Below, in pieces: positions 55,262 through 59,063 of a DNA stretch of 64,000 nucleotides. The notes below the pieces were generated by a model. That model searched no databases. It was not told the DNA's origin and saw only the letters and a program-made list of their open reading frames with translations. Every line of letters begins with the position of its first letter. Position 1 is the first letter of the stretch. The DNA lies in NCBI GenBank assembly GCA_944387145.1, contig CALXDU010000001.1, forward strand, positions 100 to 64,099, read 5' to 3'. The stretch comes from an uncultured Oscillospiraceae bacterium. GTDB lineage: Bacteria; Bacillota; Clostridia; Oscillospirales; Oscillospiraceae. Position numbers and translations under genes: made by a program.

Positions 55262-55429
55262 GCATTATGCCCGCAGTGAACACTGCGGGCATTGTCACGT
55301 TCTGGGTGCATTTTGAGACTTGTGTGTTACACGTCTGCACAATCCTGCTAGTGGTGCAAAAAAGGACTGGAAATCCCCCTGAAAATATGATATCATATGG
55401 TGTAATGCTTTGTTAAAGGAGGGAAATCT

Positions 55430-56266
55430 GTGAATCTTACTTGGCTGCAAAGCGGATTATATGGTTTTATCTCCGGTCTTATGGATATTTTGCCTGTTTC
55501 AGCACCGGCGCATAAAGTGCTTTTGCTGAAATTCTTGGGTGGCTATACTGCGAATGAAACATTGGATTTTCTGATACATTTGGGGATCTTTGCTGGATTG
55601 TATTTCAGCTGCCAGAGTCAGATTGTCCGCATCAACCGAGCCAGGGCATTGGCGAGAATTCCCAAACGGCGCAGAAGACGTCCGTTGGATGTTCGCAGTC
55701 TGATGGATTGGAGCATGCTGAAAACAATGCTGATTCCGGTCATACTGGGGCTGTTCCTGTATCAATATGCGGTAAAATTAAACAGCAATTTGATGATGAT
55801 CTCCATTTTCCTGCTGATCAATGGCGTGGTGCTGTACATACCGCAGTTTTTTCCCAGCAGCAACCGAGATTCTCGTACATTGTCCAGAGTAGAAGGATTG
55901 CTGGTGGGGCTTGGTGCCACTGTTTCCGTACTTCCGGGAATGTCAGCAGTGGGGGCGGCAATATCCATCGGTTCTTTGTGCGGTATTGACCGCAGCTACA
56001 GTTTGACCATGGCATTGATGATGAACATGGGTCTGAACTTGGGACTGGCTATATATGACCTTTTGGGCGTGTTCTCGTCCGGATTGGGGACCCTATCGTT
56101 CTTGATTGTCATACGGTATTTGCTCACAGCGCTGATTGCCTTTGGCGGAAGCCTGCTGGGCGTCAAATTGATGCGTTATCTGGCTGCCAATCACGGTTAT
56201 GCAGTGTTTGCGTTTTACTGCACCGGCCTGGCGTTATTTACATTTATCTTGAATCTTGTGGCATAG
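55430..56266 (+). CDS. UppP/BacA-family membrane protein with substituted catalytic motifs
   Basis: GFISGLMDILPVSAPAH aligns to the BacA motif GVVEGLTEFLPVSSTGH; PGMSAVG aligns to PGFSRSG; hydrophobicity fits BacA. Confidence 0.82.
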   Translation: MNLTWLQSGLYGFISGLMDILPVSAPAHKVLLLKFLGGYTANETLDFLIHLGIFAGLYFSCQSQIVRINRARALARIPKRRRRRPLDVRSLMDWSMLKTMLIPVILGLFLYQYAVKLNSNLMMISIFLLINGVVLYIPQFFPSSNRDSRTLSRVEGLLVGLGATVSVLPGMSAVGAAISIGSLCGIDRSYSLTMALMMNMGLNLGLAIYDLLGVFSSGLGTLSFLIVIRYLLTALIAFGGSLLGVKLMRYLAANHGYAVFAFYCTGLALFTFILNLVA

Positions 56267-56276
56267 GAGGTTTGTC

Positions 56277-59063
56277 ATGGCTCAGAAGAAAACTTCCAGC
56301 CGAGCAGAGAAAATGGTTTCCGATACAAAAAAGCAAACGCCTGCTTCATCGGCAGCCAAATCCGCTCCGAAAAAAAAGAATACGAAAAAGCCGACGGTAT
56401 CTTCTAAAAAGACGCCGACTGCTAAGACAGAATATGAAAATCCCATTCCGTCAAGTGCTTTGATGGCGATTTTCAGTCTGCTGCTGTTTATCCTGTTTAT
56501 CGTCATCAGCATCAACCCTGATGGTGCCTTACTGAAGGTAATCAAATCTGTCGTATTTGGCTTGATCGGACAGGCAGGATTTTATTTTTCCATTCCGGCG
56601 CTGTTGTATCTGTTTGTCATCCACACGTTCAGCCGTAAAACGGCTGTCAAGATGCGCAGTATCTGCTTGGTAATTTTTGTCTTGATGTGCGGCGCCATCT
56701 ATCACTTGTTGGTACAAAAGTACGACATGATTGGTCAGGGAATGGAGGTTATCAAGGACCTGTATACAGGAGGTACTTCTGGAAGAACCGGTGGTGTGAT
56801 CTGCGGCGGCTTTGCGCTGCTGCTTCGCTGGTCCTGCGGACTTCCGCTGTCCTTTGTGATTACCATAACAGTTGCTATTTTTACCTTGCTAGGGGCCATG
56901 CAGATCACCATCCCCAGCATTATCCGGGCCATTGCAAATCGCCCCAGAGATGACTGGGAAGAGGACGATTATATTGAACCGGCAGCCATCGTGGTCAATC
57001 ACATCGCAAACAAACAAATTGCCTACAAACAGCGGCGCAGAGAACAGGCTGCTATGGCACAGACAACAAAAGCGGAACGCATAGCTGCCGCGGCAGAATC
57101 GCCGAAACATTTCGAGCAGAATCCGCCGACTCAGAAACACCAGGAGACTCAGCCACCGCAGCCATCGCATGTGGAACAGGGTGTCCAGGAAGATGTTAAG
57201 CAAATTCCTGGCAAGGGTGCTTCTTTCATGGATCGGATTGACCGGGAAATCAATGCTCCGTTGGTTGGAACATCGGAATATGTACGCGAACCTGTGCCCA
57301 ATGTGTTTGAAGAGCCGGTGGCTATGCCTGTTCGTGTGGAGGCTGAGGAACTGGAACCGGAGATCCCATCCCGGATGCCGGAGTTAAAGCGGGAAGAACC
57401 GTCTTCTGCTCCTGTGAAGGCAGAGCAGCCGCCTAAACCTGCACCTGTTCCCGAAATCAAAACAGGAAAAGTCAGTGCCAAAGATACGGCAGCATCTGCA
57501 CAAGAGGTTGCTCAGGAGATTGCACAGGCCCAAACCATGCCGAAAACAGAATACTGTTTTCCACCGATTGATCTGCTGAAGCGTCCAATGCGGGGAGGAG
57601 GGGACGGTACCGAAGAGATGCGGGAAAATTCCCGCCGCCTGAATGAAACCCTGGCCAGCTTCCGTATTGATGCGCATATTATCAACGTTACCCGCGGACC
57701 CAGTGTCACCCGGTATGAAGTGGAGTTGGACAAAGGCGTCCGGCTGAACAAGCTGACGGGATGTGCTGACGATATTGCACTGAGCCTCGGTGCATCTGGC
57801 GTTCGGATTGCGGCTGTGCCTGGTAAGATTTCCGTGGTTGGCATTGAGGTGCCCAACCGTGTGGTGACTACTGTTTCGCTGCGTGAGGTCATTGACTCGA
57901 CGGAATTTGCACGTTCCAAGTCCAAATCTTCCTTTGCTGTCGGCAAGGATATCGGCGGAAACTGCATCATTGGCAACATTGCAAAAATGCCCCACTTGCT
58001 GATTGCCGGTACGACCGGTTCTGGTAAATCGGTCTGTATGAATTCCATTATCATCAGTCTGTTGTACAAGGCCAGTCCGGATGATGTGAAACTCATCATG
58101 GTTGACCCCAAGATGGTAGAATTGGGTATTTACAATGGCATTCCCCATCTGCTGATTCCGGTTGTGACTGACCCCAAGAAAGCAGCAGGAAGTTTGCAGT
58201 GGGCTGTAACCGAAATGCTGCGGCGGTACAAGCTAATGTCAGACGCCGGAGTTCGTGACCTGGAATCTTATAATTCCATTGTGGAATCGGAAGAGGACGG
58301 TCAAAAGATGCCTCAGGTGGTTATCATCATTGACGAGTTGGCGGATATGATGATGGTTGCTGCCAAAGAAGTGGAAGACTCCATCTGTCGCATTGCCCAG
58401 ATGGGCCGTGCAGCTGGAATGCACCTGATTATTGCAACTCAGCGTCCTTCCGCAGACGTGATTACCGGCTTGATGAAAGCCAACATTCCTTCCCGGATTG
58501 CGTTCTCAGTGGCGTCCGCTATGGAATCCCGGATCATTCTGGATACCATGGGTGCAGAGAAACTGGTAGGCAAGGGCGATATGCTCTTTGCGCCCATTGG
58601 GTGCGGAAAGCCCCTTCGCGTCCAAGGCTGTTTTGTTACAGATTCCGAGGTTGAATCGGTTGCTGAATATGTAAAAGAGAATTATGTTGCCGATTATAAC
58701 CAGCAGGTGCTGGCCGAGATCGAGAAGAAAGCCCAGCAAACGGGCAAGAAAACGCCCAGCGTCTCGGACCCCGACCCCAGCGACGAGGAGCTGGAGGGAG
58801 ATGAAATGCTCCCGGCAGCAGTGGATGTTATCTTGGAAACCGGACAGGCCTCTGTCTCTATGCTCCAGCGGCGGCTGAAATTGGGATATGCCCGTGCTGC
58901 CCGAATTGTGGATGAAATGGAAGAGAAGGGGATTGTTGGCCCCTTCCAGGGTTCCAAACCCAGAGCCATTCTGATCACCAAAGAGCAGTGGCAGGCCAAG
59001 AAAAACGGGAATAGCCAGCAAATGGATTTTGACGATTTGCAGGAATTCTCGGAAGACATGTAA
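56277..59063 (+). CDS. FtsK/SpoIIIE DNA translocase
   Basis: N-terminal TMs, GPSVTRYE, Walker A GTTGSGKS, Walker B IIIDELAD, gamma domain SVSMLQRRLKLGYARAARIVD. Confidence 0.97.
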   Translation: MAQKKTSSRAEKMVSDTKKQTPASSAAKSAPKKKNTKKPTVSSKKTPTAKTEYENPIPSSALMAIFSLLLFILFIVISINPDGALLKVIKSVVFGLIGQAGFYFSIPALLYLFVIHTFSRKTAVKMRSICLVIFVLMCGAIYHLLVQKYDMIGQGMEVIKDLYTGGTSGRTGGVICGGFALLLRWSCGLPLSFVITITVAIFTLLGAMQITIPSIIRAIANRPRDDWEEDDYIEPAAIVVNHIANKQIAYKQRRREQAAMAQTTKAERIAAAAESPKHFEQNPPTQKHQETQPPQPSHVEQGVQEDVKQIPGKGASFMDRIDREINAPLVGTSEYVREPVPNVFEEPVAMPVRVEAEELEPEIPSRMPELKREEPSSAPVKAEQPPKPAPVPEIKTGKVSAKDTAASAQEVAQEIAQAQTMPKTEYCFPPIDLLKRPMRGGGDGTEEMRENSRRLNETLASFRIDAHIINVTRGPSVTRYEVELDKGVRLNKLTGCADDIALSLGASGVRIAAVPGKISVVGIEVPNRVVTTVSLREVIDSTEFARSKSKSSFAVGKDIGGNCIIGNIAKMPHLLIAGTTGSGKSVCMNSIIISLLYKASPDDVKLIMVDPKMVELGIYNGIPHLLIPVVTDPKKAAGSLQWAVTEMLRRYKLMSDAGVRDLESYNSIVESEEDGQKMPQVVIIIDELADMMMVAAKEVEDSICRIAQMGRAAGMHLIIATQRPSADVITGLMKANIPSRIAFSVASAMESRIILDTMGAEKLVGKGDMLFAPIGCGKPLRVQGCFVTDSEVESVAEYVKENYVADYNQQVLAEIEKKAQQTGKKTPSVSDPDPSDEELEGDEMLPAAVDVILETGQASVSMLQRRLKLGYARAARIVDEMEEKGIVGPFQGSKPRAILITKEQWQAKKNGNSQQMDFDDLQEFSEDM

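Follow-up and report, generated by a model that had tools for sequence, protein, structure and literature searches.

A ftsK-linked BacA/UppP-fold protein of Faecousia is maintained by purifying selection after loss of its catalytic residues

Introduction

The phosphatase UppP/BacA is central to the recycling of the carrier lipid used in cell wall synthesis, and it serves antibiotics as a target and bacteriocins as a receptor. The resemblance of its fold to that of transporters has also prompted the proposal that it flips undecaprenyl phosphate (C55-P). Here we consider a gene of this family in a 64,000-nucleotide stretch of contig CALXDU010000001.1 (assembly GCA_944387145.1), from an uncultured Oscillospiraceae bacterium of the genus Faecousia. 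This whole stretch is referred to below as the window, and positions are counted from its first letter. The gene lies immediately upstream of ftsK/spoIIIE and encodes a full-length UppP homologue, the window protein, in which residues essential for catalysis are replaced. Is such a gene decaying, is it a phosphatase with an altered active site, or has it taken on a role that does not require hydrolysis? The initial annotation of the locus, made from the sequence without database searches, proposed a maintained pseudo-phosphatase repurposed as a C55-P flippase, a binder, or a septal partner of FtsK/SpoIIIE. The analysis reported here points to a neofunctionalized pseudo-phosphatase that probably descended in place from a housekeeping UppP. 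Since its clade keeps the fold under strong selection without the catalytic residues, it provides a natural test of the nonenzymatic roles of this protein family.

Results

The window protein is a BacA/UppP homologue that has lost the catalytic residues

The sole Pfam match of the window protein was PF02673 (BacA), which covered the full length of the protein (residues 10 to 269, profile positions 3 to 256 of 257) and scored 113.7 bits against a cut-off of 33.4. An AlphaFold2 model built from a 46-sequence alignment had a mean predicted local distance difference test score (pLDDT) of 85.1 and a predicted template modeling (TM) score of 0.83, with 10 to 11 helices in the BacA order. When the model was compared with the Protein Data Bank (PDB) using Foldseek, only BacA entries were returned at an E value of <0.001 (TM scores of 0.74 to 0.80), the top matches being 6fmt and 5oon. 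The model, which follows up the structure prediction suggested with the initial annotation, retains the BacA fold, an inverted repeat composed of six transmembrane helices and two pairs of re-entrant helices. By sequence and by fold, these data establish the window protein as a member of the BacA/UppP superfamily.

The same protein falls outside the definition of UppP itself. All 12 NCBIfam models for the UppP equivalog (TIGR00753 / PRK00281 type) scored below their cut-offs, with the best scores, 74.1 and 73.9 bits, far from the required 308 and 217.5. When the protein was aligned to E. coli BacA (PDB 5oon/6cb2) with HMMER, VEGLTEFLPVSSTGH was paired with ISGLMDILPVSAPAH and PGFSRSGATISGG with PGMSAVGAAISIG, revealing the substitutions E17S, E21D, S27A, T28P, G29A, Q164A, R174A, S175V, and T178A (E. 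coli numbering). The essential positions E21, S27, and R174 and the metal ligand position E17 are thereby occupied by D, A, A, and S, and the codons at 55502 and 55946, which align to S27 and R174, are both GCA (Ala). These assignments, together with the motifs SGLMDILPVSAPAH and PGMSAVG, had been made correctly in the initial annotation. Equivalents of P, S26, H30, S173, G176, and R189 are kept, and the consensus of the clade to which the protein belongs is SGLxDILPVSAQAH for motif 1 and PGxSA[VIM]G for motif 2.

Mutant data from E. coli BacA bear out the earlier statement that Ser27 and Arg174 are needed for activity. The S27A, R174A, and E21A proteins retain 0.013%, 0.13%, and 1.4% of activity, respectively, and each of these mutations alone leaves BacA unable to complement a conditional mutant of E. 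coli (PMC4641660). Ca2+ is proposed to be bound by E17 and E21, whereas the ligand of R174 is pyrophosphate (PMC5852022). From the replacement of these residues, we infer that the window protein does not act as a phosphatase on undecaprenyl pyrophosphate (C55-PP). Public records nevertheless label the proteins of this clade undecaprenyl-diphosphate phosphatase, despite their failing every equivalog cut-off, and this labeling amounts to a systematic annotation error.

The derived form is under purifying selection

The ratio of nonsynonymous to synonymous substitution rates (dN/dS) was estimated by the Nei-Gojobori method over 278 codons, and the neighboring gene coaBC was used as a control in the same genome pairs. 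Between the window gene and its orthologue in locus L034, there were 73.5 synonymous and 9.5 nonsynonymous differences (dN/dS of 0.032); against locus L037, the corresponding values were 49.0 and 13.0 (dN/dS of 0.074). Nine other close pairs within the clade gave dN/dS values of 0.02 to 0.21. For coaBC, the range was 0.08 to 0.12, and it was 0.08 to 0.09 for the pairs involving the two nearest relatives. Selection on the derived form therefore matches in strength the selection acting on a core gene of biosynthesis, and purifying selection despite the lost catalytic residues was found in all 11 close pairs. The gene ftsK was also tried as a control and was discarded, because its codon alignment was unreliable in the variable N-terminal half, with values near 1 and saturated dS.

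No internal stop was present among the ftsK-linked copies listed for the genus, and the open reading frame (ORF) was intact in every relative inspected. The view that the gene is maintained rather than decayed thus stands. Gene loss was likewise not shown in any of the 12 genus genomes that lacked a clear match: 10 of these also lacked an FtsK motor-domain match at an E value of ≤1e-40, one contig ends inside ftsK, and one genome (G605) carries a divergent ORF described below. Because the ftsK motor domain is missing too, the 10 absent loci point to gaps in assembly or binning. The 10 metagenome-assembled genomes from which the whole locus seems to be missing are G594, G621, G536, G585, G574, G537, G560, G551, G636, and G571, one of which is 98% complete.

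By position, the gene is orthologous to a canonical UppP that precedes ftsK

A word-indexed protein search returned 1928 relatives, of which the top 120 were 64 to 92% identical to the window protein and nearly all had D, A, and A in place of E21, S27, and R174, respectively. A contig scan of species-representative genomes found 63 loci with the same substitutions at 43 to 97% identity. The named loci were mostly from Faecousia, Limivicinus, or unclassified Oscillospiraceae metagenome-assembled genomes, the nearest being that of "Ca. Faecousia faecavium" (97%). In all of these loci with enough downstream DNA, ftsK followed the gene. The alignment of orthologues that had been proposed as a check thus finds the substitutions recurring in 120 close homologues and 63 genomes, in a form that is under purifying selection.

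Across the order, the best relatives found in 201 genomes were canonical UppP proteins, here called type B, with the motifs QGxxEFLPxSSSGH and PGxSRSG and about 27% identity to the window protein. Longer flanks were fetched for 20 type B genomes from other genera of the Oscillospiraceae and Oscillospirales. In 13 of them, the canonical gene was the immediate upstream neighbor of ftsK and shared its orientation, and the 20 proteins were all invariant at 18 of the 20 tabulated conserved BacA sites, every catalytic residue included. Since canonical type B genes occupy this position too, the adjacency to ftsK is ancestral, and by position the window gene is orthologous to the housekeeping UppP. 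Judged by gene order and alignment, the dead gene is the in situ descendant of the UppP gene that precedes ftsK across the order. The place before ftsK is therefore no mark of the dead form, and it cannot by itself argue for the septal partnership proposed in the initial annotation. Loss of R261 was considered as a further mark of the dead clade and was rejected, since a Cys occupies this site in canonical type B proteins as well (FAYYCWG).

Other phosphatases cover the ancestral reaction

The genome that contains the window (G000; assembly of 2.02 Mb, estimated to be 100% complete) was searched for other enzymes of this kind. Contig 15 encodes a canonical, E. coli-like UppP, here called type A, which scored 286 bits and has the motifs VEGVTEWLPISSTGH and PGTSRSGSTILG (PGTSRSG), and contig 42 encodes the single PAP2 phosphatase. 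Both of the alternatives for which a search had been suggested, a second canonical uppP and a PAP2 gene, are therefore present, and because they are, the ancestral chemistry is covered by other genes. Against the window protein, type A scores only 40 bits, below the type B relatives (75 to 98 bits).

Type A was found in about 26 of the 134 genera of the family. An internal stop was present in 4 of 28 type A genes across the family (G267, G319, G210, and G293, all of other genera), so that the accessory type A copy is sometimes a true pseudogene in those genera, unlike the ftsK-linked copy in Faecousia. On contig 15, the type A gene adjoins a divergently oriented OmpR-family response regulator gene (Response_reg plus Trans_reg_C; L001 594-1388 [-] and 1483-2325 [+]), a layout that resembles cell envelope stress or bacitracin-responsive modules.

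Erosion of the active site is graded within the genus

When 301 genomes, drawn from 134 genera of this family, were searched, matches of >110 bits appeared only in the genus of the window protein, and it was in this genus alone that eroded active sites were seen. Among the 151 genomes of this genus that were searched, scores formed a continuum between 426 and about 45 bits (identities of 67% and about 25%, respectively), and most of these genomes had a second BacA family match at about 37 to 45 bits, resembling the type A protein of the window genome. Twenty loci spanning this gradient were fetched, and the gene was upstream of ftsK in all that had enough flanking DNA.

The active sites in these loci range from intact to unrecognizable. 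Locus L131 has a fully canonical site (VQGIAEFLPISSSGH and PGLSRSGTT). Partly eroded sites pair PLSASGF with PGLSRTG, PVSSQAH with PGISRVG, and PVSAQPH with PGLSRTG, and the form found in the window is PVSAxAH with PGxSAxG. Strongly eroded sites include PVPTDAQ and PLSASAN, and in L132 motif 2 is unrecognizable. Among representatives chosen at 50% identity, E17S and replacement of S175 by a hydrophobic residue were general across the wider group, and R174 was still present in many of the distant members but missing from the nested clade to which the window protein belongs. The replacements vary across the genus: R174 has become A, G, S, P, C, T, or L, and S27 has become A, G, E, or T.

In a maximum likelihood tree, 40 of 41 genus copies grouped together in a single clade within type B. 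The stem that leads to the eroded group, which has 37 rows, measures 1.41 substitutions per site (Shimodaira-Hasegawa-like approximate likelihood ratio test value, 100), and a second small group, L134 to L136, sits on a stem of 0.8. The divergent ORF of G605 (L139; contig 65, 3895-4842 [+]; AAVEGIGTVLPLSSAGF and PGLSPVG) is a very divergent, ftsK-linked, BacA-like ORF that keeps E17 and the Ser pair, shows E21T, H30F, and R174P, and belongs with the L134 to L136 group. This group represents a second route by which the active site has eroded. Locus L131 (G576, contig 9) is assigned to the same genus and yet clusters in the tree with copies from other genera; the genus may still contain the ancestral state, or the genome is misplaced, or the gene was acquired by transfer.

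Conservation has been lost at the old site and gained elsewhere

Conservation was compared column by column between the eroded clade and the canonical orthologues. It was lost at the equivalents of T28, R174, T178, S196, and P202. It was gained at residues 71 to 87, inside the invariant segment RARALARxPKRxRxRPLD, and at residues 139 to 149, inside PQFxPxSNRDSRTLSRVEG, with further gains at D210 and along helix 10. E. coli BacA has periplasmic N and C termini and cytoplasmic H3-H4 and H5-h6 connections (PMC5852022, section 6), and because this topology places those connections in the cytoplasm, both gained loop segments are predicted to face it. The remnants of the motif loops are themselves invariant in their new form (P22, S24, A27, H28, P169, G170, S172, and G175), and the core of the protein is still constrained, now with small uncharged residues. 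One homologue, P0002 (325 aa), has an internal tandem duplication of about 47 residues in the motif 2/h7 region, so that VLPGVSAIGASLSIGSICGVERSYGLTMAMLMDMGL is present twice (alignment columns ~189 to 235).

Layout of the locus

The features of the locus are listed in Table 1, and they include the full-length ORF and ribosome-binding site (RBS) described in the initial annotation. Because the ftsK RBS overlaps the stop codon of the uppP-like gene, the arrangement suggests a two-gene operon in which translational coupling is possible. The hairpin downstream of the kinase-like gene probably marks the end of that gene's transcription unit. The promoter candidate is weakly backed, with 8 such sites found versus 5.9 expected by chance. 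The phosphotransferase-like gene adjoins the uppP-like gene elsewhere only in L037, the closest relative with upstream sequence, and the upstream context is otherwise variable.

Table 1. Features of the uppP-like/ftsK locus, in window coordinates
Feature	Position	Strand	Evidence
Upstream gene, APH-family phosphotransferase-like, 374 aa	54137-55261	+	PF01636, 48.8 bits
GC-rich palindromic hairpin, 3' of APH-family kinase-like gene	55267..55292	.	Terminator-like match, consensus scan only
Sigma-70-like promoter candidate for the uppP-like/ftsK unit, TGGAAA-17-TATCAT with TG	55368..55396	+	Consensus match only
RBS GGAGG, spacing of 7 nt to GTG start	55418..55422	+	Read from sequence
BacA/UppP-fold putative pseudo-phosphatase ORF, GTG start, 278 aa	55430..56266	+	ORF list; PF02673, AlphaFold2, Foldseek, dN/dS
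Former BacA1 motif SGLMDILPVSAPAH, residues 15-28	55472..55513	+	Sequence and alignment to E. coli BacA
Polybasic loop IVRINRARALARIPKRRRRRPLD, residues 65-87, between H3 and H4	55622..55690	+	Clade specific, nearly invariant; topology from PMC5852022
Second clade-specific conserved segment PQFFPSSNRDSRTLSRVEG, residues 138-156, preceding re-entrant helix h6	55841..55897	+	Cytoplasmic by PMC5852022 topology
Former BacA2 motif PGMSAVG, residues 169-175	55934..55954	+	Sequence and alignment
TAG stop of uppP-like gene	56264-56266	+	Read from sequence
ftsK RBS AGGAGG, overlapping uppP-like TAG stop	56265..56270	+	Read from sequence
ftsK/spoIIIE, 928 aa, ATG at 56277	56277..59063	+	Pfam FtsK_alpha, FtsK_SpoIIIE, FtsK_gamma (alpha, motor, and gamma domains)

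Discussion

Three explanations compete with that of a neofunctionalized pseudo-phosphatase. The gene could be a functionless relic whose frame stays open for a single reason: a nonsense or frameshift mutation in it would have a polar effect on ftsK, an essential gene, by translational coupling or by Rho polarity. The overlap of its stop codon with the ftsK RBS fits this idea, as do a gene pair that is never separated and the extreme divergence inside one genus, down to about 25% identity. However, selection for an open frame alone predicts a dN/dS near 1, and the observed values of 0.02 to 0.21 equal those of coaBC; in addition, new invariant motifs arose, and the transmembrane fold is predicted with confidence. 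The dN/dS values largely refute the relic, which we consider very improbable, and since these values are low and gene loss is not shown, both decay and a frame kept for polarity can be set aside. The protein could instead still be a phosphatase, with a rewired site or another substrate; one possible arrangement would have Ser24, which is equivalent to S26, as the nucleophile with Asp19 and His28, acting on C55-PP or another lipid phosphate. The near invariance of the S26, H30, S173, G176, and R189 equivalents in the clade would be expected of such an enzyme, and the conservation of the motif loops in their altered form shows that constraint on the pocket region continues. Yet E. coli S27A leaves only 0.013% of activity even with S26 in place (PMC4641660), R174A leaves 0.13%, and here both residues are gone along with E17. 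The many different residues found at the same positions across the genus suggest released constraint rather than a single rewired solution, and every NCBIfam UppP equivalog score is far below its cut-off. Continued catalysis therefore appears quite unlikely.

A noncatalytic divisome component has a somewhat better claim, though it too is unlikely. The protein would then serve as a membrane adaptor whose polybasic loop contacts DNA, anionic lipids of the septum, or FtsK, in the last case through the linker or the N-terminal membrane domain of FtsK. An ftsK operon arrangement kept across the order and clade-specific conserved elements on the predicted cytoplasmic face are both in keeping with this role. 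The adjacency is nevertheless older than the loss of catalysis and does not single out the dead form, and the N-terminal regions of FtsK are too variable for coevolution analysis. Of the overall interpretation in the initial annotation, the maintained pseudo-phosphatase is upheld, whereas the reading of ftsK adjacency as a sign of septal partnership is not.

The best explanation, and in our judgment the probable one, is that the window protein is a neofunctionalized pseudo-phosphatase descended in place from a type B UppP. The data establish the orthology, the loss of catalytic residues, the retention of the fold, the selection at the protein level, and the presence of replacement phosphatases. 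The sequence of events may have been as follows. With a type A UppP and PAP2 available, the ftsK-linked copy in Faecousia would have been released from catalytic selection, and it would have lost its nucleophile (Ser27), Arg174, and both glutamates (Glu17 and Glu21) while evolving rapidly for a period. Strong purifying selection would then have resumed on the new form, in which the 10-helix BacA fold is predicted to surround a former pocket that is now decharged and lined with small residues. To this fold would have been added invariant elements on the cytoplasmic face, the polybasic H3-H4 loop and the NRDSRTLSR segment before h6. The pseudo-phosphatase is predicted to be coexpressed with ftsK.

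Which role the new form has acquired can be stated only tentatively. The idea that BacA might act as a flippase was raised from its structure (PMC5852022), which is the literature proposal that the initial annotation had invoked. A nonhydrolytic role in the handling of polyprenyl carrier lipid, by binding C55-P or by translocating it between leaflets, is a possibility that we consider clearly less likely than not, and the conserved basic cytoplasmic face would in that case receive the C55-P head group. As a guess, we would rank carrier-lipid handling or translocation ahead of a divisome-linked scaffold and the scaffold ahead of residual or altered catalysis; another transport role may be a further alternative. 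The more specific proposal that the clade is a dedicated C55-P translocase or carrier-lipid chaperone, derived from UppP in genomes without DedA/UptA and DUF368/PopT, is more doubtful. If true, nature would here, for the first time, have separated the flippase function long proposed for BacA from the phosphatase function. The window genome does lack both known families, in keeping with a flippase role: its best DedA/UptA (PF09335) match scores 18.9 bits, below the cut-off, and it has no DUF368/PopT (PF04018) match. The return of C55-P to the inner leaflet must then depend on a different protein. The absence was considered as support for a flippase and was rejected, since it has no specific association with the clade and DedA is spread over dead-form and other genomes.

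Several observations weigh against the proposed account. Among 121 genomes of the family, DedA is present in 61 and DUF368 in 34, so their absence is common in the family even with a canonical UppP. In the genus itself, 24 of 61 genomes have DedA, whose presence, by inspection, is not evidently anticorrelated with the dead form. The old pocket has lost its cationic and metal-binding residues; with the pocket Arg and the acidic ligands gone, head-group binding would need different residues, such as those of the basic cytoplasmic face. The retention of S26, H30, S173, and R189 leaves room for residual or altered catalysis. Finally, genera that have both types (G237, G043, and G142) keep type B canonical, which means that redundancy permits erosion without explaining it; redundancy looks necessary for erosion and not sufficient.

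Full-text literature searches for a dead BacA/UppP clade, a pseudoenzyme, or an inactive paralogue of this family found no description of one. The occurrence of a canonical orthologue at the same locus in sister genera, together with intermediates within the genus, makes this clade a comparative series through which functions of the fold other than hydrolysis can be explored.

Among known systems, the window protein resembles E. coli BacA/UppP (5OON and 6CB2) in its full-length PF02673 match, its protein length, and its predicted 10-helix interdigitated inverted-repeat fold (TM scores of 0.76 to 0.80). It differs in having only about 22% identity, a substituted catalytic set, and scores below the equivalog cut-offs, and its polybasic H3-H4 loop and NRDSRTLSR segment are new. 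With type B UppP, inside which its clade nests, it shares the place and orientation before ftsK and a C-terminal helix of the FAYYCWG type. It is nevertheless only 23 to 29% identical to these proteins, stands on the long stem of 1.41, and has lost the catalytic set, whereas type B is canonical in all 20 proteins compared. The two families known to translocate C55-P, UptA (DedA) and PopT (DUF368), bear no sequence or fold relationship to the window protein; as small polytopic membrane proteins with re-entrant helices, they may offer a functional analogy. As for pseudoenzymes in general, the window protein shows the features by which they are recognized in practice, namely, homology to an enzyme family, loss of residues each of which is essential by itself, purifying selection, and a competent paralogue or analogue, here type A UppP and PAP2, that covers the ancestral function.

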